Part shown: positions 1 to 23,400 of the stretch, in pieces | Layout of the letters: each line of letters opens with the position of its first letter | Position numbering within the stretch: the first letter of the stretch is position 1 | From: Cenococcum geophilum | Taxonomy: Eukaryota | Direction of reading: 5' to 3' | Assembly (NCBI GenBank): GCA_050273025.1 | Contig: CP158635.1 | Span: 7,626,001-7,690,000 of the forward strand | DNA: 64,000 nucleotides | Program-made: the position numbers and the translations under genes | Notes under the pieces: model-generated | Seen by the model: only the letters and a program-made list of their open reading frames with translations | The model's database searches: none | What the model was told of the DNA's origin: nothing

Positions 1-399
1 AAATTACCGCAGTTCTAGGGTATAAGTTACAGCTTAAAGCAGTAATTAGCGGTTAAACTAATTAATTAACTAATTAATGTCGCGTAGAGGTGCCATACGA
101 GAGTTAGTTAAGGTAGTAGAGGTAAAGAGTTAGGCGAAGTAGATATTAAAGTTAAGTACTCCTATAGAAACGCTAGTAGGTAAATTGCTGTTATCTAATA
201 CTTATTAATAGTAAGGTAAATTAAGAAGTTCTAGTAAATACGCAGCATGCTAAGTTTAGCGGCATTTTACGGTAGATTGCCTTAGGTAGTATAAGTTTTA
301 TATAGTTATAATCTTTAGGATTTAAGAACTAAACTAACTTATTAGTTTATTAAACCTTATAAATCCTACCTAGACTACTAATATAAAAAGGTAATAACT

Positions 400-1290
400 T
401 AGCTAAGTATAGAATTTATATATTGTTTTTAATTATATTTTAATAGGAGACTAAGTAAAGCTAATTGAGCCTTTACTATAGCCTCCTTTAAGCCCCCCTT
501 TACCGCCCTTAATTAATCCTCTATATTAAACAGCCGCTAGTTAAACCGTCTAATTACTTATAGGACTTAATACACCTTATTTAGCGTATATAGTATATCC
601 TCCCTTATAACCTTAAGCTAGTCCTTTACTAAAAGCTTTTAAAATATTACCTTTTTTTAATTTATATTATGCGCTTTAGTTATAAATATAGTTTTATAAC
701 CTTAGAGATAATCCTGCTTTATTACTTAGGCGTCCTAAATTAGATTAATAATAGATATATTTTAAGCCTTTTTAGCTTTTTAAAGTTCCTTAATTTCTGC
801 CTTTAAACTCTCTATTTTAGTAATTAGAGGGTAATACAGTCTATAAAGCATCCTATTCCTCCTTTTTATAACTAATTATCTAACTTACAATATTAAAGAG
901 GTCCCTCTTTATAGTTTTTTTAGTTTCTATAATAGCCATCTCCGCGGCGCTATTTTTATTTAACTTAGTTCTCTTTAAAGTATATATAGCGGCATTTTTA
1001 GCGGCTGGTAGGATAGAATAGGTTAGTAAAGGCTTCTTAATAGATAGCTAAGCTATCTTCGTGGCTTTAGCTACCTTACTATTCTTCTCCTACTTAATTA
1101 GAAACCCTCTAATCTCCTTTTAGTAACTATCCACCGCTTTCTTCTTTCGCGACTTTAGAGCTAGCTTAGTGGTCCTATCTCTATTCTTTAGTAACGCCTT
1201 TTTAATATAGGGACGCTTAGTGCGCTTAGTTAGGTAGCTGCATACCTAGGGTTTTTATTTATCTATAATAACCGATTAGCGTAAAATATC
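400..1290 (-). pseudogene. RIP-degraded ORF of unknown function, K/E-rich and coiled-coil-like
   Basis: Minus-strand frames read e.g. KLALKSRKKKAVDSY*KEIRGFLIK*EKN and LITKIESLKAEIKEL*KAKKA, with only TAA/TAG interruptions. No family recognised and boundaries are approximate. Confidence 0.35.
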
Positions 1291-1623
1291 TATAACTCTT
1301 TCTTAGCATATATACTATTACGATATTTACTTTAAAAATAGGTTAAGGGCTGGTATATAGTTAAGTTAAGGGGAAATTAGTTCTAATATAAAGAGTAGGT
1401 AATAGATAGATGGATAGTATTTAGCAGTAGGATCTAAAAGGGAAGCTTATCCTTATTAACGTTAAGAACGCATATAAAGTAGATAGGTAGTAGTAATTTA
1501 GGGGAAGACTTTAATAAAGGATTATTTTATATAATTAGTAGCTAGTTAATAGAGGAAGGCTAGAAACCTATAGTTATAATATTATATATTATAACATTTT
1601 GCCTAACTTCCTCAAATATACAT

Positions 1624-2178
1624 ATAGGTGGTGGCCTTCTATAGCATTTTGTCGGCATTATAAGTTAACGCGTTTTAGTAAGGCTTACTAATAAAATTAC
1701 GCTAGCTAGGGTGCCCGTAGTATACTAACCTAGGTAAAAGCGTCTAAAGCGCCTAATATAAAAAGTATTTTTTACTAAATAAAGGGATATAGAGCTTAAA
1801 GCTCCTTACTATTCGGTTATAAATCGCCTTTATATTATAACTGTTCGATCTATACGCCTTTTAGTATTACCTATTTTATAATTAGTGGCGGCTACTACTA
1901 TAGCTTATTTAAATCTGTAATTAAGTTAATTATTTAGTAAGGCTCTAAAATAAGGCTTTAGATTTAACTTTATATATTAATACGTAATTAATATTAGTAA
2001 GCAATTTAAAAGAGCCCATCTCTACTATTAGGCCTCTATCGCGACTTCCTACTTTAGTATAATAATAGAGCCTCCTTAACCAACGTCCTCTCTACAATCG
2101 GCGTTTCCTATATCTTTACCTACCTCCAATATAAACCCCCTAGAAACAAGCTTATCGCGATTAAAAAGGTTAAAATAA
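1624..2178 (+). pseudogene. possible RIP-degraded ORF of unknown function
   Basis: One plus-strand frame (IGGGLL*HFVGIIS*RVLVRLTNKITLARVPVVY*PR*KRLKRLI...) has only RIP-type stops. No motif recognised. Confidence 0.2.
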
Positions 2179-2728
2179 GAATATTATATAAGGCATGCAA
2201 CGCGACTATAGTATTACAATTAAGGTATATATCTAGAACGAGCCGTATACTAGTATAAAGAGAATAGTAGTAGAATAAGCGGGTGTTTTAGATTCTATAG
2301 CTAATACGCCCCTTAATAAACATTAAGTTAATAATAGAGCTTTAGGAGTTACTAATTAGCCTTATATTAAGTATAGAGTTACTAGTAATCTATTCTTTCT
2401 TAGCTATATTTTAAATTAGGTATAGATTTAAAGCTTTAAAAGCTATATTAACTTTATATTTACTCCACTTTACTAATTAAATAGTTAGATCTAAAGTCTA
2501 TATTAATTATAACTCTAGCTAGGAGCTCCAATCTAATAAAATTACTGCCTTAAAGAGTAAACTAACAGACTTTAATTACTAAGCGCGAAATTGCTGTATA
2601 TTACCTAGTATATGCCTAGTTTTTTAAGTGGTAAGCTAGTAAACTTCTATTACTAAGCGCGAAATTGCTATATATTACCTAGTATACCGCCTAGTTCCTT
2701 AAGCAGCAAGCTAGTAAAATTCTATTAC

Positions 2729-2886
2729 TGTTGGACTTAAAAGGGGATATCACGTAGCTACGGTTCGTAGATAGTATGATGGTTGTTATTCTTGTTAATT
2801 AGAAAGGGGAAGGGTGAGGAACTTAAGGTTCCTTACCACGCTAGTGCCACGGCAACACGTGACAACCACGTGCCTTATTCCTAACA
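2729..2886 (-). repeat. 3' LTR of Copia 1
   Basis: tgttggact...attcctaaca, near-identical to 8459-8616. A purine-rich tract (aaaaaaaaggttgccag on the minus strand) lies just inside it. Confidence 0.95.
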
Positions 2887-2959
2887 CTGGCAACCTTTTT
2901 TTTATGGTTGCTATCTATATATAAATAACGCAACTAAGCTATAACGGTGCTAGCATCCG

Positions 2960-3152
2960 CCACGTTATTGTATTTTGCCGTCTTCTGCCGTATTCTGCTA
3001 GCTATAATATTCTGCCAAATTCTGCCCCATGTTCTGTTAAATTCTGCCAGCTATACTCTGCCAGATTCTGCCAGCCATACTCTGCCAGATTCTACCAGCT
3101 ATATTCTACCAGATTCTGCCAGCCATATTCTACCAAATTCTACCAGCCATAT
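2960..3152. repeat. short tandem repeats built on attctgcca(g) in the Copia 3' non-coding region
   Basis: About four 24-bp units attctgccagccatactctgccag, plus flanking partial copies. Confidence 0.85.
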
Positions 3153-3199
3153 TTGCGCCTTAGCGGCCCTCGCTATATCTCCTACTCCCTTTTAACCTA

Positions 3200-6100
3200 A
3201 CCTTTAACTTATACACGCAAAGTATTTATATTAACGAATGTCTCTAGTGCCTTATTTAGGTTTACCTTCGTCATCGCATCTACTGGGTTATCTTGGCTAT
3301 TAATCTATAAATTTTAAAGAGTTCTTAACGCTTATAGGATTGCTGAAGTACCATAATATCGATTATAAGGCGCTTCTTTTTCGTAGTACCGAGCTTAACT
3401 AAATACTCGTAGAGGGAATATAAGTCGGTGCACACGATTGTAGGGATAATAGGAAGTTTAAGTTAATCTATAATTATCTTTAGGGTAGTTCTAATTGCAA
3501 TTGCTATATTAACTCCGCTAACTATTTTATATATCTCTGATGCTAAAACACTTTGGGTAACGCGCTTGCTCTTAGTTAAGCTCTAATAGATAAGATTGCC
3601 ATAGATTGTAAAGTTATTCTCTCTAGTAAATTCGTTCGCGATAATAATCTTATATCCTAATTAGGAGCTAAAATCTTTATTATTTATAAACGATCTATTA
3701 ATAAATACAAAGAGCTTAGCGGTAGGAAGATTAATAGGCACGTAGAGTAGTCCCCAATCGAGATGGTTTATTTACTAGAAAAGACGTTTATTTAGGGCAA
3801 GAACATTATCCTTAGTTGGTTCTTAGTGTTAAATGGCAACGGAGAGATTAAATAAAGCCTTAGGTTAATAGATAGAAGTAATATAAGCTCCGCGAGCGCG
3901 TTACTTTACGTATCCTTACTTTAGGGAATTAACGTTAATAACGTTAATCTTCTTACCTTAACCCTTCTAGCGTAAAGCAATAGAATCCTTATTTAGGGAA
4001 AGGATGTATCTATTAAAGAGTAATGGTGTTGTTAAATTAAGCTTTTCTTTTAGCTTTACTATAAGATTTGCCTTTACTAGCTCGTCTTCTTTAAGAGCTA
4101 AAAATTAGTCGTCTCCTAAGATAATTATATCGTTAGTTTATATACCAACGATTCTAAATGGAGTTCCTGTAGTTGTAATAAGGAAGCAGGGATTAAATAT
4201 AGAAGTAGTTATTAAAAGCTTCTCTTTATGGTGCTTGCTGTAGGTAGCCCACCAGTAAGTTTCTACCTCTACGATCCTATATAATGGCTTAAGTATAACT
4301 ATAATCGTATCTTTAGGATACTGGTGGCGAATTTGCTTTAGAAGGTATGCTAATATTAAGCGCTAAAGGTGCGTCTCTAATTGGGTGTAGGCTTAAGTAA
4401 TATCTCGTAAATAAACCGCTATTCTATTCTTTATTAAGGAGGGAGCTAGCGCAATAATAACTCGCTAACTAGCTTATTAAATCATGGGAGACTACGTAAG
4501 AATTACCTCCTTACTATTATTGTTGTAGCCTTAAATAACAAGCCTTAATTTCTTGAATGGGGCGTTAGTAGCTTTACCCTTAATCTCGTTAACCATTCTT
4601 AACTTAAAGATGCGAATTCTATTAAACTTAGTAGGGTTATACTTCTTAAATTTAAAGACTCCTCTTGCGATAAGACCGTTAATCTTCTACTTGTCGGATG
4701 CTTAGAAAGGAGCTCCTAGGGTTATAATACGACCTTCCTTTTGGAGCTGTTTTGCGAGCTTAAAGTTAGCCTTCTCTTTAGCTATTATAAAGGCCATTAA
4801 TAACTTAACTCTATTCTTAATGGCGGCAACAAATTATTTTTTAAAATTAATAAGATATTGGCGATTTTATAATCCCTTTGGGCGACCTCTACCGCGTCGT
4901 GGTTGTGGCGTATCTACTATAATTGTATTGGGATTATAGTCGTCTTCTAGAGCATGTTAATTATAGTTCTCTTTTAGGGCATCTTCTAGGGCATCCTGTA
5001 AAGGCTCGGAATTGTTATCTTTATAGTAAGGCTTAATAATAGTTAAACGGAATTAAGTGGGTCTATAAGGCATCTAAATAGTATAAGTTTAACCATTAAT
5101 TATAATAAGTTAATGTGGGCCTAACTATTTTCCTTTTTTACGCTATACGCGTACTTTAGACTAGAGTGGCGGATTGAGCGTAGTTAAGGTATTTGGGCCA
5201 TTTCTTATTCCTAGTGCGTTATTAACCTAGCGTATAGCATAGAGACATCGCACCTCCTTTATTGCCTTATAAATAGCCTCGGCTTATTATATAATAGAGA
5301 GAAATAGTGGAGAATTGTTAGTTATTTAAGGGTAGGCGCTAAAGACTAGTAACGTAGGTACGAGTCTATCTAGGCCAGCAGAATTATTAATAGCTTTAAT
5401 AGCTATTTGCAAGGTAAGTTCTTTACTAGCGTCCTTTAGTTCTAAAGAGATAATCTTATATATACGGCGTAATGGCGTATAATATCGTTCTACTTTTCTA
5501 ATACTATTATATGCCTTAATAGGGACTTCCTTAACCTTAACTGCTATTGCCTTTATCTATTATCGAAACTCTATAAATAAGAAGTTCTTTCCTACGTTAT
5601 GGACGATTTAATTAGGGGGTCCTAAATAGATATTAATCTAGTATAACTAAAGGGTCTCCTATACGTTTCTGGCTAATATATCTTTTAAAAAACACGCGGC
5701 TTAGAAGGAGGTTAAGAAGTTAATAACTTAGAGTACTGGCTTACCGCTAAGATATATAACGTTAATAATAATATAGAAGTTAAAGTTGTAGTTATTCTTA
5801 AGGGTGAACTTAAATCGGCTAGGGGACTTCTGGTTTATTTAGCAGTAATAGTAATACTTTATAAAATACTTAATTGCCTTAACCTTGACTTTATAACCTA
5901 CTTGCTAAAGAACCCTAAGCAATTAATAAATAGATAGGTGGCCAAAATGACGGTATAGTTGGCGTAATTCCGACTTAATTAAGTAGCTTTAAGTAATACT
6001 CTTTTCTAGTTAATAAAGGAGTAACTAGGGGTAACCCTACTTGCATATAACGGGTACCTAATTATCTCCCTAAATAAGTATATTCTTAAGGTTATTAAGC

Positions 6101-8073
6101 CTAATACCTAACTTATCTATATCTTTAATGTAAAATAGAAACGGAGTATTTATAGGAATAACGTGAAAACTAATATACCCTAAGGGGGTTTAAACCCTAA
6201 TTGTGCCGAGAGAGATTATAGTACCTTTGCTAAAACGAATTGTATGCTAGCCTGCCGTTAAATAGTTAATTTAAATAGAGCTATTAAGCTACTAAAGGGC
6301 TTAAACTTAAGGTTCTCCTACTATAGATACTCCTACGGCTTTAGTATCTGGTATAATACTATAAAAGACATTTGCCGAGTATCTATCGTCGAAGGAAAAC
6401 GCGGAGCTCTCCTTTGGCTTATTAAAGATATCTAACTTTATAATAGAATGGAGCGTAGATTGGTTATTAAGGACAGCAATAGTTTATGTGCTATTTACCT
6501 TACTATACTTAGTAAAGTATTGGTTAGGTAAGTAGTCTTTAATTTCTATATCTATAAGGAGCTGTTTAGTTTTATTAACCTTACCCTTAAGGTCTTCTAC
6601 GCCTTTATATTAAACTAGGAAGCTTTAGAAGTAGGCCATAGTAACCTTATAATTTCTAATATTTCTTATACTCTAACGGAACTTATTATATACCTCTTTT
6701 CGCTTATTAAGGGAGTGTCTAGTTAACTAGCAATTTAGCTTCTTATAAACGTAGCATTTCTTTTAGTAATTACTTTAAAATAAACCTTTATAGGGACCTC
6801 TATAATTACCTTATAGTTAACGTTAATCGTACCCTCTTCTATATTCCCTACCGCGGCTACTATATATTTAATTAGTCTAGTTATAATCGTGTTGGTTAGG
6901 AATACTTAGTTAGGTAAGGTTTTTAGTATAGAACTATTAAGATTCTTATATTTATATCGCAGTACCTATAGCAGAGCGTAGCTTAGCATATACTCCTTTA
7001 AACGTATTTATAGGTTTATATAGCGCCAAGTTATACTTAAGAACGCTATAGCATGCTAAGATAACCTGGTCCCTTAGGCTGTTTTTATTTTAGTAAGTTT
7101 TAGTAAAGCCATATTAGATTTTCTAGAGTTTATTAAAGAGTAGTTAAAGGCACTCTAAACGAGTCTTTGTTAGGTTAGAAGTAATAACTTTTTAGAACGT
7201 AGTCTCTCGCCATTCGGATATATAAAGTTGGCGATTCTTATTAGTCTTAAAGTGGGCTCTAGTAAGCTAAAGCATTATATTAAAGTTATAGTTTTTACCC
7301 GTAATATAGTCGTAATAGAATATTACTGCCCGTCCCTTTAATATAATAGAGAAAGCATAATAGTACTAGTAGCGTTAAATTTTAACCTTATTATAACAGT
7401 TATAAAAGACTTATAGTTTTGCTTTAAGTATATTATATAGTTCTCCTTTAAACTTTTTCTCTTCGTCTAAATATACCTTTATTAGATTCGTAACTTCTTA
7501 TAGTAAAGGCTTACCGGTTAGCTAGAGTAAAGGAGGTAAAGGCGAAGCAACTCTAAGTAGGAGAGCACCTTTAGGTGGGAGAGCAGCTCTAGGTAGGGGG
7601 TTAGCGTTCTAGGGGTTTTAATATAAATTAAAGTTGCCTTCTGAAGAATATAGGTTATTTTTAGGTTTCCGTAGTTAACGTATAATCTCAGCTTCCGTCT
7701 ATATTAGTTCTTTTATACTAGTAATAACGGCCTAAATATTGCTAGTAATTGGGTTACCGTTCTTAGCAATATATACCCCGTTCCTATAGAGGAAGTCTTA
7801 AAAATCCTAAACAATATTAATATTGCTAAGTGCCTAGGTGTTAGCGGTCCATCCTACGAAATCCTTCCTAAAATATTCCTATAGCTATATATCGGTATAG
7901 TATCTACTTTAGTAGAATATAATATGGTATAGGAGAAAGCTATTAACTTATTTTACGGTATAAGTTATTATATTAAAGGTAAATTCGTTCTAATTTTTAT
8001 TAATAAGTTTCGCGTATAAAGCTACCCCTAGTAATAAGGAGTCTTCCTAGTTGTTTAAAGTAGGCGTAGCCAT
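3200..8073 (-). pseudogene. Copia gag-pol polyprotein pseudogene
   Basis: Protease IIPDTKAVGVSIVG (~6325-6360, DTGA-type). Integrase RQLYRHFGHLS (~5935-5965). RT LRDIT*AYTQ (~4380-4410) and LKPLYRIVEVETYWWAT (~4245-4293). RNase H end *INSQDNPVDAMTK (~3265-3305). Confidence 0.92.
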
Positions 8074-8458
8074 ATTTTTAAAGGAAGGGAAGTGTTATTG
8101 GCGTAGGGATTGTCGTTTAGTACGCGTTCGTAATATATATTTATTATTTAGTACGCGTTCGTAACATATATTTATAATTATAGGGCTTAGGACCAGTTCT
8201 AGCCTTAAATCGCGAAGACTTGTAAAGCGTGTTATTCTGCGTAATAAACGCAAGAATCTGTAATCTTAGAAAGGCTTAGGATTAGTTCTGGCCTTTAGAT
8301 CCTTAGATTTGTGGAAGAGTTCTATTTAAGGTTTAGGACTAGTTCTGACCTTAAAAGACAGCTTCCTCTAGCACGAGTAGCACTGGTACAGTGGCTCGTC
8401 TCTTCTTAGTGATACCTAGCTGTTCTGTGGTATAATAGTAAAGTTAACCACTAATCAG

Positions 8459-8616
8459 TGTTGGACTCATAAGGGGATATCACGTAGCTACGGTTCGTAG
8501 ATAGTATAATAGTTATTATTCTTGTTAATTAGAAAGGGGAAGGGTGAGGAACTTAAGGTTCCTTACCACGCTAGTGCCGCGGCGACACGTGATAACCACG
8601 TGCCTCATTCCCGACA
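8459..8616 (-). repeat. 5' LTR of Copia 1
   Basis: tgttggact...attcccgaca, direct repeat of 2729-2886. Confidence 0.95.
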
Positions 8617-8681
8617 ATTATTAAGCGTAAAATTGCTATATATTGCCTAGTATACCGCTTAGTTTCTTAAGCGGTAAGCTA

Positions 8682-9104
8682 ACGTATTTTACAAGCGAAG
8701 TATTGACATAAGCGAGTTATCGAAACCAATTTCTCACCAAAATCTATAAAATCTATAACGAAATATCTTAATAACGACTAAATAAAAACTCTAAAAATTT
8801 AATAGATTATAAACATTAATTAGAAAAAGTAATTATTATTTTTTATAGGATAAAACCTAATAATTATTAAGATATTAAGTTTTAGTCTTTAAATATAAAT
8901 AAAATATTATGTCTTAATAACAAGTACATTTATTAATTTAAAAATTTAATATAGGCTTTAAATTATATGTAAAAGTTTAATTTAAAAATTTCAGAGTGTT
9001 TTATCTAGTTGTTGTTAAGATATTTCATTGTAGATTTTATAGATTTTGGTGAGAAATTGGTTTCGATAACTCGCTTATGTCAATACTTCGCTTGTAAAAT
9101 ACGT
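8682..9104. mobile_element. 423-bp MITE, Tc1/mariner-pogo (Fot1/Pot2-like) type, non-autonomous
   Basis: TIRs of about 115 bp start ACGTATTTTACAAGCGAAG, and the outer ~74 bp are a perfect inverted match. TA duplication at 8680-8681 and 9105-9106. Removing the element restores the tandem-array unit aagc-ta-gtagacttct. Confidence 0.93.
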
Positions 9105-9899
9105 TAGTAGACTTCTATTATTAAGCATAAAGTTACTGTATATTGCTAGGTATATTACCTAATTCTTTAAATTATAAGCTAGTAGGTATCGCCTATTAGT
9201 AGAGTATTTTAATATATTAGCTCGTATATTGCCTAGCTCCTATATTATAAGCTAGCAGACTTACTACATTAATAGAGCACTATAATATATAGCCTAGCGC
9301 ATTACTTAGGTCCTTAAGTAGTAAATTAATAGGCGCTACTTATTAATAGAGCACTATAATATATCTAATTATGCGTTGCCTAGTTCCTACATTATAAGCT
9401 AATAGGCTCCTTTTATAAGTAGAGTATTCCGAATATTGGCTTATATATTACCCGGTTCCCACATTATAAGCTAGCGGCTTCTTTTATTAACGAAGCACTG
9501 CGATATATTACCCACGCATTACCCGGTTTTTTAAATAGCAAAATAGTATACTTTTCTTATTAATAAAAGAATTGTAGTATATTGCTAATATATTACCTAG
9601 TTTTATAAAAAACAACTTAGTATATACCTTCTATTAGCCGTAAGACTGCTATATATTGCCAAGTACATTACTTAATTCTATAAAAAAAAATTAGTATTTG
9701 CCTTTTACTAACTATAAAACTGCGGAATACTGCCTACTATATTACCTAATTCTAAAAATAATAGTCTGTTATACTTCTTCCACCAGAGAAGAATTTACGG
9801 CAAACTACCTAGTATATTGCCTAATTCTGCGCTAAAAGGATTAAAAATATATCGCTACTATAATCTATAATATTTGCATTAGCTACTTCTTTAAAATTT

Positions 9900-12500
9900 T
9901 AGACTTATTTATACCTACGTTCTTCTTAAACTTAAGCTTATTTAAAATTCCACTTTTAATACGGAAAGCCGTTAATAGTAATACCCTCCGTAATAGCCTT
10001 TAGAAATAATAAGAGAATTTATAGTCCGTTTAGCTACTTTTATATGTTATAGATTATATAGTCTTTTTACTTTAGTAATATTCCTTTAGGGAGGCATATA
10101 ACGGCATCCTTACTATATTTAGTAACTAAGGCCTAAAATAAGTGTTAGTTTAGAGTTCTAGTTAAGCGTGCTGCTATTAAGAGGTAAAAAGATAAAGTAT
10201 TTTGCTACTTACTAGTATATATACCGCCCTAATAAATAAAAAATTAGTACTAATAAAAATTTTACTACAATAGCCTTTAATATATAGTGCTGCTGTAATT
10301 TCTTTATAGATAGCTAAAAGCGTCCTAAACTTCGCGTTATTATAAAGAATTTCCTCCTTATTCTAATCCAAGATACTTTTAATAGGATTTTTAACTGCGT
10401 TGGTGTAGTATTAAACTAAACTTTTTTTTGATATCTAGAAAATCTTTACTAAATCTATCCTTCTATAAAAGTAACCCAGGCGTTATTACTGCATTATAGT
10501 ACGTAAAGTAGCTGCTTAAGGAGCTGCTGGCCATTTATACTAGTTTTTTCCTAGTAGGAGAACTATCTTCTCTCTATTTAACTATTTTCTGCTAAAATAC
10601 CTCTTTTATTTCTAATACTATTACACCTTCTATACTATATAGAAATTTAAGTTCTTTAGTTTTATAATTATACTTTATATATTAAATTTAGAGCTAGTCT
10701 AGAATAGCTTTTAGTTTTCTGTTATTAAAGTTAATAGTATCCTAGTTACGGTAAATAAGAAAATTTATAAAAATTAGGCTACCAACCTTAACTAATTCTT
10801 TATATATCGTAGACTATAAGGCACTTTTAGGGTTGCTCCTTCCCTACTTTAAAAATTGGGTCTATAGTTTAGCTATTTTATTAACTTCCGCGGATATATA
10901 TTTTCTAAGAATATTAGGTTAGCTTAAGCGGTTGCCTAATTTGTATCTTTAAGGGCGCTTATAATAAACTAGTATATATCTATAATACCATTCTCTATTA
11001 CTATACTAGAAATAGCCTAGGTAAAGAATCTTAGGTATAACAGTACCACTTTTTTTTTTAAGAATAAAGGAATTAGTTAATATAAGTTTCTTATTTTTTT
11101 TTTATTATAAAACTTATCCTATAAGATTCTGCTAAAGAGCGTAGTTATAATAACCTATATACTTCTATAAAGGGCCATTAAAGAACTATAAGTAGGGCGT
11201 TTTCTTTTTACCTATTAAAGTCCAACTATTATTTATCGCATTATAATCTAACTAGTCCCCTAAAGTCCCTATTTAAAGCTATTCCTAAAGGTTTAGTCGC
11301 GCTATTTCTTTAAATATACCTTTTATTTTATAGTATATTGCAAAATATAGTAGCGTCTACTCTTTTATTATAAGCGTAGAGTCTTTAAATAATAAGATAT
11401 AATTATCTCTCTAGTTAGTAATTATACTTAGAATTATATATAACTAGATTTGCACTATACTATCTTTATATTATAGATATAGCGTTTTAATTTATATATA
11501 AGTATAAAAAAGGTATCTTGTTCTAGCTAGGACACTTAGCGTCTTTAGCCTAGTTATTCTTTTATAGATACTAATTTGCATTTTTAGACGCTTAATTAGC
11601 AGCTACTTTATCTAGGTTTATAGCATAGTGGTAACTAAGGATAATAGTTAAGTACGCAGTTACGATTTTTCCGGTTCCTATACTATTAGCAAAAACCCCA
11701 CTATTTAGTTATGTGCGCTCTTAGTGGAATATCTTAAATGCGCTATATAGCTATAGGAATAATTTAAACTTTAGATTTAAACCCTATTTACTAGAAATAG
11801 GGACTAGGTTCTTTACTAAAACGGCCTTTTTAGGAACTCTATATAGCTTAGCTAAATGTTTATATATTTACTACTCTATTTATTAAACGTTACTTCCTAC
11901 TTTAGCTATAGCGGTCTCTTAAAATCTAAAAAGAGCTAATATTAGTCTAATTTAAGATATACTCTATATAACTATATACTTATGCCTTTGCGTAATAGGC
12001 ATTATAACCTATATCTTCTTAGCTTAGGTTATATTATCCTTAGGCGCATTTTTACCTAAGGTATCTTAGATTATATTAGTTTCTATAATTTTACTAAGGA
12101 AAGCTTTTACGGGTATAGAGTTAAATTATTATATAGAGTTTAAGCTAATTAGGGATATAAAGCAGTTTTACTCTAGAGAGTATCGCAATTATCCTTACCG
12201 TACTTTATATTATTGGGATTATCTATAGGCTAAATAACTAGATTATTACGGCTGTTTCTAGTAGCTTACCGCAGTTTGCCGTAGTTTGCCTATAGATGCC
12301 TCTAGTAAGTTACTCCCTTTTATAATTATATTTCTTTAGACTTAATAGACTTAGAATACCGCTATATATTAATAAGATAGATAAAGCATCGCTTTTATTC
12401 TTACTATCTTTATTAATAAACTTAATATCTAAGTGCTTACGGATTAGCTTAGGCGTAATCTTCTACTATTTCTTAAGTACGGCCTTAGCGCGCGAATACT
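9900..12500 (-). pseudogene. SNF2/SWI2-family ATP-dependent helicase pseudogene with at least one intron
   Basis: Motif I SGVFANSIGTGKIVT (~11660-11705; un-RIPed GGVFADGMGTGKT). Motif II RIL*DKFYNK (~11101-11130; DEFH). Motif III *AISSIVIEN (~10990-11020; WAxSGTxxEN). C-lobe AKFRTLL...KIFISTNF (~10240-10335). Motif V-like ILLLFLKAITEGITI (~9975-10018). Phase-0 intron 10133-10212 (GTAAGT..CTAAC..TTTTAG). Ends are approximate. Confidence 0.8.
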
Positions 12501-13149
12501 ATAGGTTAGAGTATTAGGAATTTAAAGAGGGTTTATATAATAATAATTCATTGCTTAACGTCCGATTTGGATCCCTATTAGGCCTACGCGGACTACTCCT
12601 TATTTACATATAGGGAGAAAACTCTATTTAAGAAAAATAAGAAAACCCTATAATCCATCTCCCCGCCTTTTAGGACTCGCCTACTTAGCGCCTATAAGTC
12701 GCCTATAGTACTCTACTACCTTACTATTTAACCTTCTTAGAAACTACTACTGCCGTAATAAGCCTACGGACGCGCTAGTATTATAAACTATTACTTTACT
12801 ACTATAGAGTTACTAGGGGGCACCTACTGCTCGCCCCCTTGCCTTTTATTACTATTTCCCTTATAACCCGGAACTAATTTAGCACATTTTAACTAATAAG
12901 CCACTAGGTGACCGCCTTAAGGCCTTTTTATGTTAAGAGTAGTGTATTATAGTTCTCTATGCCAGCTACTAAAAGCATTATTTCTTAATTGGTGCGTAGG
13001 GGGCATAGCAGTATTACGTATTTTAGTGTCTGTCTTAGCCAGCTATATTTATATCTTAGGCTACCTACTAGGACACCTATCTAGTAAAGCCAATCTTTTA
13101 GTCCTATTATTCCTATTCTTAAAAGTGTTGCTATTATATTTTCTGCCTT

Positions 13150-16100
13150 TATTAGGCCTTCTTAGAGCCCTTAGGTATTTACCCCCTATAGCGTTAACTA
13201 TACTATAGCTTGGGTTTATCTTGCCTAAGTCAGCCTCTGTACCTTTAACTCTTATTTACCTCTTTAGTGTTAGTCCAACTAGTATTATATTGTAGTAGAT
13301 AGTTTTCTAGCGTTCTTATATGTTCTACTTTAGCTCCTTTCTCTATCTTATTATTGTCTTTACTAACCTCTTATACATCTCCCTTCCTCCTCTATATAGG
13401 CCTAGGCCCTAAAGCGGCACCATTTTTCTTCTACTTTCTTTACCTATTTCTCTAATATCTCTTCCCTACTTTAGGGTTATTAGTTTATTCTCCTATAGGG
13501 CACCCTAGGGTCCCTCTATAGTTTACTTAGGCGTGTCTTAATGTACTTTATAATATTAGAGTTATGTTTATTTTACGTTCTTTATATTATAGCGGCTTTA
13601 ATATATAACTGTAGGGGGGGAATATTAGATTCCTTCTTAAGTAGTACTATAGCCGTTTGCTTGTACCCGCCTGTGATACTCTAAAGGTAGGCTATTTGGA
13701 CCTTTTAAAGTAGTTTAAGGAGTAATTTAGGGGGGCCCTTTTTAGTTTCTCTAATGGCCTAAATACTAGATCTATATATTATGGTTGGCCAGACGACTGC
13801 TGTATATAGTAGGCGTAACCTCTAAAAGTATAGACCCTATATAGAATTAATAATCCTAGATAAAGTAATAAACTATACTTGGCCTTTATAGGCCGCTTAC
13901 GCCGCATATACGCTCCACTAGAGCTTACTATCTACCTATACTCCTAATACCCTTAGGCCCTAAATTGGTTAACCCCCAAAGCCTTAAATACAAATTATAT
14001 ACTAGAGATCTATAGATTAGTTGCGTTTTCTTATAAAATAGATTAGCTAGTATTTCTCTAGTAAGAATTAGACTCTATAACGTTTTGCCTATTCTATATA
14101 AGTATTATAGGCTTTCTCTAGTGTTCTGCAATTCTCTACGGCTATTAGCCCGTATATAATTAGGTTTGTATTATTAATAAAGCCTATCCCCTAGGTCGCC
14201 CCTTCCTTAAAGAAGTCAAGTAGGTTACTTATAAAGAAAAGGAAGAGTATAGGCGAGAGGGGTAATCCTTATAGTATTCCTGTTGTAACTGCGATAGGGG
14301 GGCTCTAGTATCCGCTAAAAACCAATAATGTTTCTTTCTGGCCTATAAACCCTTAAACAAATTATATAATCCATTCTAAGAAGCCCTTTACCCTAAGGAT
14401 ATATAGGAGACGCTTGTGGGGTATATTATTATAGGCACCACTAATGTTTAGGCTAAGCATTAATACTATAAAGTCCTTTTACATCGCCTATATAGATTTA
14501 ATGGTAGCAGTAAGTAGCATAAGTGCTAATAGTGTTAAGTGGTTCTTTCTTGCCCCTATTTAGCTTTATAGTAGTAGGGCGTGTTCCTCTACTATATCTG
14601 CTATATGTTCCGCTATTACCCTTTTTAAGATCTTACTAAGGGTGTTTTCTAAGGCAATAGGGCAGTAGCTTCCTAGGATTAAGTAATCTGCTTTACCTTC
14701 TTTTTATAGAATAACCGTTATTATAAATCTTCCAAATCGTAGGTAGTAGCCTATAGTAAAGTATACTCTAGCTATATCTGCAAGCTAAGGTGCTATAAGT
14801 AGCCTATAGGTTTTTAGGGCCTTATTTAGAATCCTATCTAGTCCTAGTACTATATTATTTAAAAGGCGGCTAATAGTTCTAGTCATTTCCTCTGTTATTA
14901 TATCGCTATTAACCTATAGGCAAGTTACCGGTGTTTCGCCCGTAATATTACTAAGGTCTACTAAAGCCAGTTAGGGGAAGAACCTTTCTATAAGGATCTT
15001 TACCTTCTTATCGTTATCGTTTATAGCCTATAATTCTCCTACTCTTTATAGGGGTAGTAGGTGTAAGTCTTCTACTAGGCGCCCTGCCTTTTTCTTTACC
15101 CATTTCGCTATAGCCTAAAGGCCCTTATTATAGGGGAGGCTTAGGTTAAAAGTATACTTGTTTATAAACTATCTCCAGTTATTCCTTACTTCTTTTTTTA
15201 GGGTATTCTTTAGCTAGTTTCTTATATCTTTGTATCGTCTCTCGTCTTTAAGGTTGTGGCTACTTATATATTTCCTTCTTACTTATTGTTAGCTAGTAAC
15301 TAGAACTGCGTATTATATAAACTATATGTATCGCGTATAGGGGCCCAGTTTTAAGATCAGGTAGTACTCTTTTAGCCCATTTTTAATCGCTGCCTAGATC
15401 CTTTCTAGTTTTTAGTTAATTTCCTTAGGGGTGGCCAATAAGCCTTGCTTGTTTAGTATTAGGTAGATTTCTTCTAGGTCTTAGAGTTATTATTTAACTG
15501 CATTAAGGAAACTGTCTATCTTAAGCTTCCTTATTACGTATCTTTTTCTATTTAGTTGCGCTTTAGTATCTAGGTCTAGCTATATCTAGATAGGGATATA
15601 GTCTAGGGTAAGTGCCTATTCTTCTTTAGGGTTATACCTTTTAAGTCTCTAGTATAGGCCTTCGTCTATAAATATAAGGTCAATTATACTTCTAGCGGTG
15701 CCTCATTGCCATATAATTGCTCCTAGGGGGGTGGCTAGCTTAAGGCCCTAGATATTTATAGCTCTTAGTAGGCACTCTAACTGTTAATCTACAGTAATAT
15801 AAATACCCCCCTACCGCGGGTAGTAGAGGTTTATATCTCCTAGTAGAATAGACTCTATACCTTTAGTTTCTAGTAAGCTTATTACTAATATAATATTCTC
15901 TATTTATGGGACCCCTTTAACCCTAGGGTTATACACATTAATAATTTATACCGGTCCCCTATATATTTAGATTGTTATAACTATAATATCTAGGTTAACT
16001 GCCAACTATAACTATAAGGATAGGCTAATAGCCTTACTAATTATAAAGCACACGTATATAGCTACTTTTAGTTTATATAGGAGCTAGAATCCTTAGGGGC

Positions 16101-16250
16101 AGTATATTAATTATATAAAGGTATTATAATACGGTTCTTATATAGTAAGGATATAGTATTTCTCTAGGTCTAGACTATCTAGTAGGGGCCTTATAAGGCG
16201 GTGGTTTATATTACCGTAGTTATACTATATAATAGATAGGTGGCGGACCC
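13150..16250 (-). pseudogene. LINE ORF2: AP endonuclease, reverse transcriptase and C-terminal Cys/His motif
   Basis: APE GDINLYYPR*GG (~15808-15842) and VIDL (~15676-15690). RT YCPIALENTLSKIL (~14627-14668), LNISGAYNNIPH (~14415-14452), GIL*GLPLSPILFLF (~14237-14282) and GFINNTNLI (~14160-14185; xVDD). Confidence 0.92.
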
Positions 16251-17436
16251 CTAGCGAGGGTCCTTTAACTCTCCTTCGTTCTTTGCTTCTTCTATTTTTA
16301 CTTTCTCTAAAATATTTGGAGCTTCTATCTCTTATATCTATACCCTAGTTACTACTTATTTTATATAGAGCTTTCCATTCCCATATCTTATATTCCTGTT
16401 AGCGCTTCTATATCTAAATCTATTATTATTACCAGTTCTTCCCCTATTCTTACTAGTCGGCTATATACCCTTTATAGGTCGGCTGCGAATGTTATATTTA
16501 CCGTATTAAGTCTAATTCTTAATTATCCTAGTCTTAAGCCTACTATTACTGTCTATAGGGGTCTTTTTACGGGGCGTCCTCTCCCTTATGTCCCCTATAA
16601 CCCTTATATCCCTAATTAGTCTAGTAATATTACGCGGCGTTACTTCTAGCCTATTAAGGCTTGGGATAGCTAGCCTAGCCCTCCAGTATTAAAGGTAGGA
16701 AACGCTAGGAAGGCACCTACGTCCCCCTAGCTTATCGCCTATTATTTCCATTTATATAACCTAGCATATAGTTATTCCCGCAGCTATTAAGCCCTTACCT
16801 TCTATCTCCTATATTTAATACAGTCTTCCCTTTCCCACGCCTTATATATACTTTGGTGGCAGTTCGCGTATTTTATTTAGTTTTAATTTAAGTAATGTCT
16901 CGTATTGTAGGGGCCTATATAGTGGTCGCAGCACACCTATACTGCGTATATAGATCAGGTGTGTCCCCATTATATACAGCGATAGTATTATTTTAGGTAT
17001 AGTCTATAGTTATAAAGCCTTGTGTTATATATAAGGCCATTTATAATTATTCCTTTTTGGATAAGGAGTTTTTGCATTCCTAGTGTATATATACTAACGA
17101 TAAGGGAGCCATATATTCGTCCAGCGTCTCCCTAGTAAGTCTCCGGCGACTCTTATATCCTCTTATTATTCTTATTATATACTTAGTTTACATTTTCCTA
17201 TTAAAGCTATTAAATTTAGGTGATTTTAAGTCTTAATATAAGGCGTTCCGTTTATCTTACTATCTCCTATATAATTGCTATATTATCTGCCTCAGGGTTA
17301 TTAATAATATTTTTATTCATTGCTTTATAACGATATATTCATTCATAAGGAGTGATAATAATTAAATATTTTGCCATCCCTTATAAATGAATATTTATAT
17401 AATTATGAATATATATAGAGGGTTGGGCTAGTAAAA

Positions 17437-20400
17437 TGTCATAGGACGGGGCAGTGGCTATAAGACGTATGTATTTAAGGAGTCTATAAGACGTTACGCG
17501 ATCGATCGTAAGGGTCGAGGGCGTAAGGGGGTAATATACCTACGCGTAGCTGATATAAGCTGTACGCGAGGTGTATGCAAGAGCACGGGGCTCTCCTATG
17601 GAGGCCCCTGTGGTGGGGTTCCGTGACACTACCCCCCCTCCTATAGAGGCGGAGCTCTGGTGACGCTATGGTTACTATATATATATAGAAGGGACACTTA
17701 GGGTATAGAAAAGAAGAAAGGGGGGTATTACTAAAGGCTTAAAACAACGTTATATAATAAGGCTTGGCATCTAAGAATCTGACTAATTAAATAACTTTAA
17801 CCGCCAGTCAAAGTTCCTGGACATCTTAACAATATTCCAGTCACGTGATTGCACTTTACCGCAATCTAACGGCAATCTAACGGCAATTTGCCCCTACGTG
17901 GTAATGTATAACGGTTTAACTCTATAAGGGCTCCTATAGAGGATTAGGTATAAAATCTCTGCTTAGGCCCAATTTCTGTAGGTTCGCGTAGTAAAAGTCG
18001 CTAATTAGATCCTTTGCATTTTTGAAGTCTTCCTATAGTTACCATTCTGGCTAATTTATGTTAAATCCTATGTATATAGCTCTGTAGTAGAGCCGTTGTC
18101 CTCTGCCTTTGCTAAAGTATTTAGAGTTAATAATTCGTTTAACGGTCTACTCCTTATGGTTCTTGTCTTCGTTCTCGTCTCGGATTAATACTAGTGGGGG
18201 TTTAGGCTATATCTACTCTAGTAAGGGGTTAGGCTAGTAAAGGTGTAGTAGCTATGGGTGAAATATAGGCTATATTCCGCGGGTGGCTAGGGCAGGTAGA
18301 AGCTCTAGCTCGTATACGGCTTCCCTATTAATGACTTATTTAATTAGGTAGGGGCTAAGGTTCTTATAATTAAGTGACTTTATAGGCCTCTGTATAGAGA
18401 TATTATGTGTATTTAGCTATACTTAGTCGCCAACACATATCTCCGGTGGTGGCGTTTTATAATAGTTGGCGAAGTAGGCCTGCTTTACTTAAGCCTAGGC
18501 CATTTCTCCCTTGCAGTAGTTAAGTAGATTTTTTATACGGTCTATATGCTGGTCGGTAAGTAGTATCTTAAGGCGTTTTCTATATAGCAGTTTCTTATTA
18601 ATAGGTTCTGGTGGTTTTATGCCGGATTAGGGGTAATATCCCTTGTTCGCGAAGAACGGGGTAAGTCCTGTAGTAGTTAAGACGTAGTTATTTGCTGCGA
18701 ATTTACCTAGTGGGAGGTGATCTACCTAGTTATTTTAACTATAGGCGACTACCTGTTGTAGGTATGCTTTTATGCTAGCATTAGCGTTTTCCGGTTGCCT
18801 AGCAGTTTTATAGTAGAAGGATATAGACATCTTAACGGAGATGCTAAGGCGTTAGCAGATTTGTCTCTATATATTAGAGCCGAACTATATGCCTTAGTCA
18901 GACGTAATCGAGTTAGGTAACCTATATAATTAGTAGATTTCGCGGAGGAAGGCGTTAGTAACGTTGCTAACGGCTACGCCTTTAGTTGGGACGTAGTGGC
19001 GCTCTTTTATAAGTTGGTATATTATTATAAGGATGTTCTTATAGGTACGGCTATATCGCTTATAGGGTAGTAGGTTAACAACGAAATCTATGGCGATATC
19101 TGCCTATCGTTATATAGGTACTGGTAGAGGGTGTAGTAGTCCTTAGTACTTTATATTAAAGGCCTTAGCGCGCTTATAACTGTAGTAGGCGCCTATAAAG
19201 CGTTCAACTAAGTCTATTATTTTAGGCCAGAAGTAGTATCGGCTAAGAAGCTTATAGGTTCCTCCTTTACCTAGGTAGCCGCTTAATTGGAGGTTGTAGG
19301 CCATTTAGATTAATTGCTGTTGTAGATTTTCTAAGTTAAGGACGAATAGACGGCCTCTATAATAGAGCCTGTTCTCTTTTACTTCTAAGGCTGCTATATT
19401 AATCTGGCCTAAGCTTTGAAGTTTAGTTGGTAGTATATGGGCGCTAGCGGTCTTTGCGGTAATAAGTTAATACAGTAATAGGTTAATAGAGGTGTTATAT
19501 GCCGTAGTAATAAGCTTATTGATTTTGGGAGGTAATTCTAGTTCTATAGTGTGGAGCTAAGATATAGTTAGCTTTATTGTAGGTAGTATACCTAGGGCCA
19601 AATTCCGTACTTTTAGGATTATCTGTTGTTGGAACTGGTTATAGGGGTTATCTTTGGACTAAGGAAGGTCTTATAAGCGGCGTATTAGGCTATTAGGCTT
19701 AGTACCTTATACTCCTAGCCTATATATAATTTTAAAGTTAAAACTAGAGAGGAACTCGTTCTAGCGTACTTAGTGTTAGTTTAGCTATTTTATAGTTATA
19801 AAGTACTTAAGGTTGCGATAATCCGTAAGGACTTTAGTTAGCTAGTTAGGTTCTACTAAGGAGAGTTCTAGTTAGAATTCCTTAAACGCTTATATAATCG
19901 CGAGAAGTTCCTTATTATAGATCTTATAGTTATATTCTTATAGTGTAAGCTTAGATGAATAGAATACGACTAGGTAGAGGAAACCGTTGTCGCCCATCTA
20001 AGAAAGGACCCCTGCGTTAACGTGGTCTAAGGAGTTAGTCTTAAGATAGAGTTGTTGTCCTAGTATGAAGTAAGCTAGGATAGGTGCTTTGGTAAAAGTA
20101 TCTTTAAGGTCTTAGAACGCCTTCTTATATTTAGGCGTCCAGATAAAACGTAGATGTGTTTTTCTTCCTTTTATAGAAAGGCCCTTTATTCGCATTATTG
20201 CTATAAGTGGTGCTATAACACCCGAGAAGTTATATATGAATTTTTAATAGAAGTTGGCGAAACTAAGGAAAGCTTATACGTCTTTAATGCAGTTAGGGGT
20301 TTACTATTTAGTAATTATACGTACCTTCTTAGGGTCTATACGGACACCTTTAGTAGTAACAATTAGTTTAAGGTATTTTACTTCTATAACTAAGAATTTA

Positions 20401-23400
20401 TACTTCTTTAAATTAATATAAAGTCCTGCGTCCCTAAGGCGCTATAAGACCTTTTAAACGTGCTCGGTATGCTTAGAAGGGTTATTGCTGTAAATAAGTA
20501 TATCGTCTAGGTACGCAGAGCAGAAGTCGTTAAGGTAGTCCCGTAAGGCGTTATTAATATAGCTTTGGAAGCTGCCTAGGCTGTTATATACGCTAAAGGG
20601 TATAACGGTATATTTAAATTGGCCAAAGCGCGATGCGAATGCGGTTTTCTATTTGTTACCTTCTTATATTTAAAGGCGGTTAAAGGCGGCGATGATATTA
20701 AGCTTAGTATAGATTTTAGCTTGGCTAAGCCGCTTAAGAGTCTTATATATAAGCGGTATAGGGTATTAGTTCTTAATTATAATAGCGTTAAGTCCTTTAT
20801 AGTTAATATAGAATCGAATACCTCCTCCTAGCTTCTTAGTAAGGAGGATGGGGGCGGCTGCTAGGGATATGCTGGGGTGAATAAACCCTTTATTAAGGTG
20901 TTTGTTGATATACTTTTTAATAACTAGAAGTTTGTCTTTTAATATTAGGTAGGGTCTCTTATAGGGTGGCGTTTTTCCTTATTTAATATTAATGGCATAG
21001 TTATTAGGTTAATATAGGGGGAGTGTATCTGCGTTCTTTTATAAGTATACATTAATAAAGTTATAGTACCTTTTAGGGAGGAGCTTACGGAGTTCCTCGT
21101 TGGTAAGTCCTTTTTTAAGCTTTATAAACTTCTTAAAGTCTAAAGGTGAAAGTCCGTAGAGTTCTGTGGGGGCATTATTTTCTAAAAGGTTAACTATGTC
21201 TATCCTGTTACTATAGAGGACGTAGTTCTATTCTTTATTAAGCTTATATAGTTATAATTGGGAGGCTGCGGTAACGGTCCAGCCTTTCCTATATACTATG
21301 CGGTAGAAGGCCGCGGTACTTATGTAGTAGTAGTTAGTCGTAGGTAGGGTAATAAGGGGTTTCTTAGGTTAGTATCCTGGGGAGTAGATAGAGGCGGCTA
21401 GGCTATGTCCTAGGCAGGTTTCTCTATAGTATTTAGAGTTAAAGGTTACTTCTCTCTTTTTTTAGTTAATGGCGGGGTTGTGTTATTTAAGCTAGTTTAT
21501 TCTGAGGATAATAGGGTAGTTAGTAAGTGGTATAATATAGGCCCAGAGTTCTTCCTGGTGCCCATTTATATCTAGGTAGAGTTGTGCTATATAGGTAATC
21601 TTCTGTGTGGTATAACTACTATTGGCGAGTTATAGGGCGCGGGCTTTGGTAAGGGGTAAGGTAGGTAGGTTATAAGTGCGTACGAATTAGGTATTTATAA
21701 ATTTATTAGTAGCTCTGCAATTAATTATAGAACGGCTTTTATATTATTTTTTAGCAGTAGTTCCTATTACGGGTAAAACTATCTATTTCCGTCTATTTAT
21801 CTTTACTAAGTTATCTATTAAGTAGGCCGATATATAGATCCCCTTATTATTAGGGCGTCCTAACCTGCGACTTAGGGCTGGGATTTGGCGTTTTCCGTTT
21901 CCGTATCTAACTCTACTACTATTACTACGTCTTCATCTTATACAGTAGTGGCACATAGCAATATATTTAGTATTTAAGGTACTAGGTTAGGTGTTAGGCG
22001 GCGGCTGCTAAACCTAGCTATTAGGCAGTTTAGGCTATAGCTATAACAGCCTTTTTAATAATATCTATAGTAACGCTTTAGCTTCTAGAGTAGCTCGCGT
22101 TCTCCGTCTAGTAGCTTCTACGGAAAGGTTAGTATAAAAAGGTCGATATTAGGACCAGTAGTGTTGCTTAGGGTAGTAGGCGTTGGTGGTTTAGTAGGTC
22201 CGGAGGGCTTCTATAGGGAGGTCTTTAGGTAGGGGTTTGCAGTAGCGATCTAATTTAGTTGTCGTTTAATCTTCCGTATAGCTGCTACTATATTATAAAC
22301 ATTATTATAGTTATGGCTGGCGGCTGCGTGACTAAGGTAATAAGTGACTTTTTTAAGGAGATCTTCCTAGTCTTTAGTATCATCTTAGGTAAGGGCTTTA
22401 GTGTATTCCTAGAATTTAATATAAAACTCGTTAAATAATTTGGTAGGGCTTATCTTTAGGGCATATAGTTTAGCTCGGTTGGTGGCTAGTAGGTTATAAT
22501 CGCGGTATATTAGGTCGAGATTGTTAAGGACTTCTTAATAGGACTGCCACTTTTGGGGGCTATTAGTCTCCCATCGGGCAAAGAGTCTGTTAAATAGTAT
22601 ACCCTTTATTCGCCCGATAATGTAGCCAATCTTAGTGTCTTCTGTAGGAAAAAGGCAGGCGCTCTAAGTTAGTTTCTCGCGGATTTACATCTTCTAGTGG
22701 CTGTATTCTTTGCGGTCTCCCTAGAAAACTAGAGGATTAGGGTAACGTGTATTAGACCCTATAGTAGCAGCTTAGGTTCGGTTGTTATAGCTTTTATTAT
22801 TGCTTTAGTAGGGGTTTCCGTTAAGTAAGGCTGCTTAGCGCTAACCCTCTGTTAAGTATTAAGTAGGTGAAGTTGCTGGGGGCGTAGAGACTTAAGTGGC
22901 GTTATATATAGTAGAGAGGTGTCTAGCGTTATTACGAATGTGCTTATTAAGCTAAGATTATAGGTATTTAATTATGCCTTCTCTTTTAGTGATTGTAGCA
23001 ATAAGTATAATCTTAGCCTTCTTTAACTATTGGACGTCGCGTTTAAACACGCAAAGGTTATTTTTAGTTTCTTAATGTGTGTTATCGGCGAGCGCCTTAT
23101 AAGCTTATAGGTCTTAGATGATATTATAATCTTAGGTAGTACGCATCTCGGCTCATATAAGCTTTAGGTAGTAGTTCTGTAGAAAGCGGTAGTATTTATT
23201 AGGTTCTTATGCTACCATTTTTATAAACGTCTCGGCGTCTTATATTTTAATTTTAATAGGTAGTAGCCCTTCCGCTTGCTTGTCCGTAGTTGTGTAGTTA
23301 ATAAAAGATAAGATATTATTAGTGTCCATCTCCTTAAGGGTTAAGGCTAGGGCTAATAAATTGAATTCTCCTGGGATTAATTGGCGTTATAGGTTGAGTA

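Follow-up and report, generated by a model that had tools for sequence, protein, structure and literature searches.

A SNF2-type gene, an open reading frame (ORF) region and a tandem array in a 64,000-nucleotide stretch of Cenococcum geophilum DNA are very probably parts of one ~20.9-kb PlavakaB (CACTA-like) DNA transposon. The stretch, referred to here as the window, covers positions 7,626,001 to 7,690,000 of contig CP158635.1 (G000:C1:7626001-7690000). The probability is put at roughly 0.85, a figure for the explanation as a whole. The SNF2-type gene in the window is real and multicopy. A first-pass annotation, made from the sequence letters alone, had proposed that the gene, the ORFs at ~400-2180 and the array could belong to a multicopy large mobile element, and this is borne out by at least 37 loci and by ends shared among copies. 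The window's gene is the degenerate second of two SNF2 paralogues in this element; it is dead and without function.

Each paralogue is a minus-strand SNF2 gene followed by an array of 72-75-bp units; the two cassettes are ~75-80% alike. The left arm of the element consists of a terminal inverted repeat (TIR) with a hairpin, a 74-75-bp array with SNF2 cassette 1 (minus strand) and an ORF of no assigned family. The middle holds the array with SNF2 cassette 2, a further family-less ORF and a Plavaka transposase on the plus strand, divergent from the SNF2 genes. In the right arm follow one or more family-less ORFs, a DUF6532 gene (right half; E 7e-11), the right subterminal repeats and the TIR. 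The three or four frames other than transposase, SNF2 and DUF6532 have no credible Pfam match.

The SNF2 stretch was searched for in the genome (178 Mb, 7 contigs). At least 43 matches were found (40 of the 93 candidates were scored); 28, the window's own copy included, are near full length at 87-91%. Merging six split pieces leaves at least 37 loci. A common body of ~20.9 kb is seen in six copies, each read over 50 kb with private inserts set aside. Among the 37 loci, cassette 1 lies upstream in 35, the transposase domain PF18759 downstream in 29 and the right arm downstream in 32, mostly at 4.6, 3.3 and 5.8 kb from the SNF2 loci; the value of 29 may be low, as this linkage used 30 of 123 PF18759 rows (those near the loci). 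The copy-number and boundary check that the first-pass annotation had suggested thus returned a multicopy sequence with common boundaries, not a single-copy, syntenic host orthologue.

The termini, CATCAGG..CCTGATG, form inverted repeats about 31-35 bp long. A 2-bp target site duplication (TSD) is present in all 15 readable end pairs among 24 examined (8 read by script, 7 by eye; the other 9 could not be resolved). Four copies read by eye at both ends have TA, AG, GT and AG on both sides. Among 20 further pairs, matched up by proximity, 8/8 script-resolved ones agree (TA six times, AA, CT), as do three read by eye (TA, AT, TA). Repeat-induced point mutation (RIP) favours TA; consequently, it is the six non-TA matches (AA, CT, AT, GT, AG, AG) that carry weight. 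At the left end the TIR recurs ~165 bp further in, facing inward, and the end folds into a 170-bp terminal hairpin (z -6.75; L045:5835-6005); the right end has none. The element spread by cut-and-paste to at least 37 loci, leaving a 2-bp duplication at each, and its copies were wrecked by RIP after the spread.

The genome also contains many palindromes of ~270 bp that resemble miniature inverted-repeat transposable elements (MITEs) and are built from a pair of the element's left ends in inverted arrangement; among the 40 candidates scored out of 440 there are about 22. Examples are G000:C1:24173100-24173367, C3:4749278-4749542 and L145-L147 (window -46830..-46567). By the alignment of copies, a motif with a GATTGCC[AG]CA core appears to be common to the array units and the right subterminal repeats. 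The last right-arm ORF (L119:7078-7749) has an Asp/Asn/Gly-rich part and a compact C-terminal domain of ~90 aa, for which no credible Pfam match was found.

The transposase matches PF18759 with E 8.5e-26 (91.4 bits against a cut-off of 26.3; 1.1e-19 in a second search) and aligns over most of its length with a 1148-aa protein of Ciborinia camelliae. Its D, D, C(2)C, H(3)H and E positions were located by comparison with P0072, in the motifs listed for five intact relatives and in the alignment of copies; individual copies are RIP-altered. PlavakaB elements, which belong to the CMCT clade, have a TSD of 2 or 3 bp and termini CATCA..TGATG, and Plavaka transposases resemble those of EnSpm, according to the accessible text of Kojima 2025 (PMC12730594). 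The present element has PF18759, a DDE transposase with C(2)C and H(3-4)H, CATCA..TGATG termini and a 2-bp TSD. It shares with the described PlavakaB elements the transposase with these motifs, the termini, the TSD and the presence of accessory genes beside the transposase; the described ones are from Agaricomycotina and carry TET/JBP, and 'SNF2' occurs 0 times in the accessible text and supplement (PMC12730594). In contrast, the window's element comes from a RIP-active fungus, is 21 kb long, carries SNF2 twice and DUF6532, and has no TET/JBP match in the frames scanned. Genome-wide, 123 PF18759 matches exceed the cut-off among the 123 of 266 candidates that were scored; many have the domain unsplit and lie away from the loci of the window's family.

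A Starship carries a tyrosine-recombinase captain gene at its 5' end and has neither DDE nor TIR ends. This identity was rejected, as the left end here consists of TIR, array and SNF2, and the ends are TIRs flanked by a 2-bp TSD. No tyrosine-recombinase family was present among the Pfam matches of the element frames scanned, which cover part of the element. Of the readings weighed, a DDE transposon of the PlavakaB lineage has stood; a Starship and the segmental repeat that the annotation had raised have not.

The SNF2 gene in the window has the following features.

9865..12537, minus strand: SNF2-family pseudogene (cassette 2); its 5' part carries on from ~76,222, beyond the window
11658..11684, minus strand: remnant of motif I (Walker A), from the profile and comparison with copies
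11526..11537, minus strand: part of a His/Cys insertion specific to the clade, located between motifs I and Ia (H..CPS..C-x-C in relatives)
11165..11185, minus strand: approximate junction of a 158-bp deletion relative to cassette 1, common to 30/30 copies
11110..11139, minus strand: motif II (Walker B; DEFH in cassette 1), in a frame that differs from that of motif I
10990..11016, minus strand: remnant of motif III
10133..10212, minus strand: spliceosomal intron, 80 nt, GTAAGT..CTAAC..TAG, at the same position in both cassettes
9949..10000, minus strand: start of motif V (10000-9971) and junction (~9971) of a 125-bp deletion that takes motif VI

The motif labels were assigned from what we take to be the SNF2 motifs and then checked against intact relatives. 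The annotation had placed motifs I, II, III and the C-lobe in the right order; the order holds on the minus strand up to the start of motif V, while the C-lobe is incomplete and motif VI is gone in 30/30 copies. The intron that it had noted, 80 nt at 10212-10133, is confirmed by an exon break at the same site in the sister cassette (profile positions 995/1004), and its excision restores, by eye, the spacing of the intact relative P0020. The motif I region (11750-11508) scores 40.4 bits against a profile of nine intact relatives, compared with -7.7 for the reversed sequence and -1.1 for the best of 100 shuffles. No Pfam match of any kind was found in the six window frames (stops read as X), and no SNF2 match in two less mutated cassette-2 copies.

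The GC content at 9.9-12.5 kb is 28%. The RIP composite index is 1.32-1.42 at 10-13 kb, against 0.47-1.82 over the window, and the mutation is as dense as in the neighbouring transposable elements, as the annotation had observed. Compared with the alignment of copies, 425 of the 443 differences in the window's copy are C>T or G>A; CpA is the main mutated context across copies.

Relative to cassette 1, cassette 2 is without 158 bp of the N-lobe and without 125 bp that hold motif VI and the end of motif V. The junction of the 158-bp deletion is identical in 30/30 cassette-2 copies. That of the 125-bp deletion is exact in 22 copies; the other 8 differ 50 bp away, and all 30 are without the 125 bp. 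The reading frame is kept across four motif intervals in 0/30 copies of cassette 2, against 16/29 measurable copies of cassette 1, and cassette 2 nowhere has motifs I-VI in one frame, as a functional Snf2 ATPase would. Since the deletions and the loss of frame are common to all copies, the damage predates the spread of the family: cassette 2 lost the N-lobe stretch, its frame and motif VI beforehand and travelled as a pseudogene. Cassette 1 is the complete gene of the pair.

An alignment of 21 cassette-1 copies, with stops read as X, was used as a query and found 36 proteins among 1.84 billion; eight of these are 483-1310 aa long. PF00176 and/or PF00271 are matched by seven of the eight (PF00176 in 7/8, PF00271 in 5/8, at E<=0.01; several lie under the cut-off). 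Profile-profile comparison of the relatives with the cassette-1 copies gives 99.9% (E 2.3e-34, 380 columns). A cassette-1 copy matches PF00271 with E 2e-4 and PF00176 with E 0.03, both under the cut-off, and PF00176 is matched by 1/21 cassette-1 members (E 0.011); the cassette-1 alignment gave 0 matches against PDB sequences. The relatives, at 19-37% identity, retain all ATPase motifs, and the intact ones have in common a His/Cys insertion after motif I, which may be a zinc site. P0020 comes from Bipolaris maydis; in each assembly of this fungus, several accessions hold related proteins.

The clade is Snf2-like and near no host subfamily. A structural model of P0020 (pLDDT 62.8) matches Chd1, ISWI, Mot1, CSB and Rad54 alike (12-16% identity, E 1e-17 to 1e-14), and among named sequences from outside the clade, HLTF/TTF2/Rad5-like ones come closest (E 1e-7 to 1e-4). 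Like the Snf2 ATPases (Chd1, ISWI, Mot1, CSB, Rad54, Rad5), cassette 1 and its intact relatives have two RecA-like lobes with motifs I-VI. They differ from them in the low identity to solved members and the His/Cys insertion, and no nucleosome-reader or RING domain is found by Pfam in the intact relatives; cassette 2 differs further in being without motif VI. Without a reader domain in Pfam, the term 'chromatin remodeller' exceeds the data. Host SNF2 genes with open frames are present elsewhere in the genome.

Three identical, intact SNF2 ORFs of 1163 aa were considered as a source and rejected (0.2% in hhalign; outside the clade on a long branch). These stop-free ORFs, which have equal scores, are at G000:C2:28468864, C5:23937521 and C7:18706562 (L106:2512-6003; the C2 copy was read), each ~149.0 kb from the end of its own contig. 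This suggests a long shared terminal duplication spared by RIP, or a feature of the assembly. Stop-riddled SNF2 remnants also occur near contig ends (C7:8329, C1:8078, C1:36167, C4:124641, C4:254331, C4:25828633, C5:132865-340680) and may represent a telomere-linked SNF2 family; the one that was read, C7:8329, fits the element's SNF2 clade at motifs I and VI only.

A second Plavaka family is present at C7:7.206-7.230 Mb (G000:C7:7205900-7230000; L111-L113, L144) and includes the least mutated Plavaka match of the genome. Its transposase has ~40% amino-acid identity to that of the window's family, and one 145-bp DNA match links the two. It carries an SNF2 of the same clade head to head with the transposase; there are again two SNF2 genes, 69-77% alike, each followed by an array of ~81-bp units. 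One SNF2 copy matches PF00176 over the cut-off. On the other side lies a remnant of a ZNFX1-domain helicase (PF25396, E 2.3e-30). One end reads CATCAGC; the other end of this family was not found. A few kb from the end, open frames at L111:3-848 (minus strand) resemble, by eye, a fungal NACHT-type NOD-like receptor (NLR).

In a quick, midpoint-rooted tree of 27 N-lobe rows, RIP-damaged and in some cases under half filled, the SNF2 pair of each family forms its own clade (support 100 and 100). Both pairs lie inside a 16-row clade apart from the named host and bacterial SNF2s (96). Because the pairing is within families, the doubling apparently occurred twice: the two families seem to have doubled the SNF2 and array cassette independently. 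This independent doubling is the most interesting feature of the element. The duplicated unit begins just within the terminal hairpin, and the ORFs behind it differ between the two sites; for this reason, joining of a sister family's left arm fits at least as well as a simple tandem duplication. The second cassette most likely came from the joining of the left arm (array and SNF2) of a diverged sister element, or from unequal exchange at the array.

The accounts of what SNF2 does for the element differ in probability. It is close to an even bet that the SNF2 motor keeps the ends and promoters of the element open, in an anti-silencing role. The clade would then be a long-standing accessory gene of Plavaka elements and would act as an ATP-driven translocase on double-stranded DNA, clearing nucleosomes or bound proteins from the ends and promoters. 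Chromatin cleared in this way would let the transposase be made and reach the subterminal repeats in silenced chromatin. This role is favoured because other Plavaka cargo acts on DNA or chromatin marks. An old association between SNF2 and transposon is suggested by two families that both have SNF2 genes of this clade, in one orientation, with DNA too diverged to align.

A number of points weigh against this account. No intact copy, expression or activity was seen. Five stop sites are fixed in all 29-30 copies of cassette 1, among 62, and many sites are near saturation; this is compatible with saturation by RIP and with a master that was damaged before the spread, and in the latter case SNF2 would not have been needed in cis. 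Between the cassettes the bias towards third positions is weak in the N-lobe (transitions 57/54/98 and transversions 31/28/41 at codon positions 1/2/3) and absent in the C-part. The tree has the limits given above, and the relatives have no reader or RING domain. No transposase is shown beside any intact relative in other fungi. A metagenome scan gave 5 loci, short or degraded, of 297 pattern matches; the three that were read have host-like genes or degraded frames nearby, and no transposase match was found in these three. No B. maydis transposase was found either: the RIP-damaged alignment gave 0 matches, and a frame of the second family gave 19 Plavaka proteins, none of them from Bipolaris.

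The same element may instead use SNF2 in transposition itself, in removing the transposase from the product or in gap or break repair, in the manner of Rad54, Rad5 or Mot1. The relatives without a histone-reader domain, the HLTF/TTF2/Rad5-like nearest outsiders and a fold equally near Mot1, CSB, Rad54 and remodellers are consistent with this, and the SNF2 of Inton and Enton is listed as 'potentially involved in transposition' in the accessible part of PMC3627910. However, the other described Plavaka accessory genes are, in the accessible texts, DNA- or chromatin-modifying enzymes, which points to silencing, and Plavaka families described there without a reported SNF2 exist. A role in transposition is rated unlikely. 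A little less likely still is that SNF2 brings the element no benefit: once captured, it would have been copied along as a neutral passenger and doubled through array-driven unequal exchange. Cassette 2 spread while dead, cassette 1 has fixed stops and weak codon-position bias, and short derivatives of only two inverted left ends exist, all as expected of a passenger. A passenger does not readily explain why two families with DNA too diverged to align both have this clade in one orientation, or why relatives at 19-37% identity, with no host subfamily close, hold all ATPase motifs. It is very improbable that the sequence is a segmental duplication, Starship cargo or a host SNF2 gene hit by RIP leakage, and not a TIR transposon. 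Such a reading could draw on the large size, the several genes and the intron, and a similar repeat was taken for a duplicated endogenous cluster in the accessible text of Hane and Oliver (PMC3017866). It is refuted, unless the pairing of ends by proximity is wrong, by a DDE transposase and by sharply defined common ends that carry TIRs and 2-bp TSDs; host SNF2 genes have open frames elsewhere, and the scanned part of the element has no tyrosine-recombinase among its Pfam matches.

The anti-silencing role could be part of a wider pattern, although this is doubtful. Giant fungal (Enton-like) Plavaka elements may keep their own Snf2 clade as an anti-silencing factor acting on the adjacent array, with the cassette as a module that is repeatedly duplicated or swapped, as in an arms race with heterochromatin and RIP. 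The module would have been doubled twice independently in this genome, and perhaps a third time in X3X3R8 of Stagonospora nodorum. If the motor serves the element, it would join TET/JBP and SET as a transposon-encoded counter to silencing, here an ATP-driven one. VANC is another transposon-encoded counter to silencing.

The annotation had also stated that SNF2 is not a core gene of the standard fungal transposon classes; SNF2 in fungal transposons derived from En/Spm had been mentioned before, in the Entons. Entons and Intons are fungal transposons that have conserved proteins, five to six in number, and En/Spm and IS3EU ancestors, according to a 2012 meeting report (Kapitonov, PMC3520738), and an SNF2 helicase is named among their proteins (Bao and Jurka 2013, PMC3627910). 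The window's element is likewise fungal, as its RIP spectrum and fungal relatives suggest, with an En/Spm-related transposase, SNF2 and about six to seven coding regions; against the five to six Enton proteins, three families are assigned here (transposase, SNF2, DUF6532) together with three or four further frames. It differs in that no doubled cassette or array is mentioned in the accessible parts of these two sources, which also state no species, sequence, termini or TSD for Entons. It is probably of the Enton kind, a likeness that is by description only.

The X3X3R8 repeat of S. nodorum SN15 contains tandem Rad5/SNF2-like genes 10-20% apart and was interpreted as a cluster of endogenous genes (Hane and Oliver 2010, PMC3017866). 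Compared by description, it is also RIP-hit and multicopy, with tandem helicase genes followed by a part in reverse orientation; unlike the window's element, it has a Rad6-like gene and a third helicase, and the accessible text reports no transposase, TIR or TSD. A giant Plavaka of the red alga Bostrychia moritziana is 17-19 kb long and has three accessory genes (bioRxiv 10.1101/2025.02.11.637652). It too is large, has tandem arrays beside an accessory gene and is proposed to act on its own chromatin. Its cargo is different, PAG1-3 (SET/6mA methylase, ParB/2OG oxygenase), and the lone SNF2 mention in its accessible text concerns host genes.

No full description of SNF2-bearing Plavaka elements was found in the literature (Repbase, outside this scope, may bear on novelty), and the accessible part of PMC5751038 contains no such element. 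A brief conference mention of En/Spm-derived fungal elements with SNF2 is here extended to an element whose ends, TSD and gene order are mapped and whose SNF2 proteins belong to a defined clade with intact members. Multicopy 'orphan' SNF2 genes in fungal annotations can be explained as transposon genes, and a re-reading of X3X3R8 is offered.

Within the window, the element is interrupted by several nested inserts.

1..145, minus strand: 5'-upstream end of SNF2 cassette 1, the body of which is found upstream of the window, split by an insert, at about -9250..-370
400..2180, minus strand: inter-cassette spacer with a RIP-broken frame of no assigned family (low-stop frame at about 630-1895)
2540..2729, no strand: cassette 2, initial units of its 74-75-bp array
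2729..8611, minus strand: nested insert bounded by direct terminal repeats of 153 bp (2729-2881 / 8459-8611), foreign to the element
8624..8679, no strand: array fragment left between two inserts
8679..9107, no strand: palindromic, MITE-like nested insert, foreign to the element (self-inverted match 79.5%)
9106..9830, no strand: remaining 72-75-bp array, directly 3' of SNF2; paralogue of the array just inside the element's left end
12526..12539, plus strand: left copy of the 14-bp duplication flanking the insert that bears a long interspersed nuclear element (LINE)
12540..29014, minus strand: nested LINE-type insert with further retroelements (RVT_1, RT_RNaseH, Integrase_H2C2), not part of the element
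29015..29028, plus strand: right copy of the 14-bp duplication
29027..29228, plus strand: direct repeat resembling a long terminal repeat (LTR), not SNF2 scaffold; partner at 76007-76221, outside the window

The window's copy is made up of segments at -9232..-8809, -2501..-372, -375..2730, 8624-8679 and 9106-12536, and then from 76222; the stretch -375..145 aligns with both cassettes of the element. The array of 71-75-bp units described by the annotation is present at 2540-2729, 8624-8679 and 9106-~9830. At ~78185 the copy jumps across ~7.2 kb, which contain the transposase and DUF6532 in other copies; PF18759 is therefore deleted in it. The copy is a non-autonomous derivative or underwent deletion after insertion. 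Its right TIR lies near 78,800, so that the element ends outside the window, as the annotation had held; its left end was not found within 50 kb upstream. The inter-cassette ORF at 400..2180 has no Pfam match in two other copies, and tblastx gives no match between it and the ORF that follows cassette 2. The insert at 2729..8611 is missing from other copies of the element and is Copia-like by eye only; it has no Pfam match at 1e-4.

The duplication that the annotation had described around the LINE is present, as 14 bp at 12526-12539 and 29015-29028, but the scaffold does not resume at 29015-29209. It picks up at 76222, after a 5-bp duplication, TTATA. The proposed use of 29029-29209 as the last join of the scaffold was mistaken, as this is an LTR-like repeat of 76007-76210: the sequence from 29027 to ~29228 has no counterpart in the element and repeats that stretch, in direct orientation, at 90%. 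The left copy of the duplication, 12526..12539, comprises 12 bp of scaffold (including TTATA at 12533-12537) and 2 bp of the LTR-like insert. The duplications indicate that the LTR-like element entered the SNF2 gene first and that the LINE then landed two bases inside it. Where the annotation had a Helitron array begin, tandem units of ~5.1 kb, 83-90% alike, are what is seen, at 29208-56307 and beyond, in the LTR-like insert (29027-76221).

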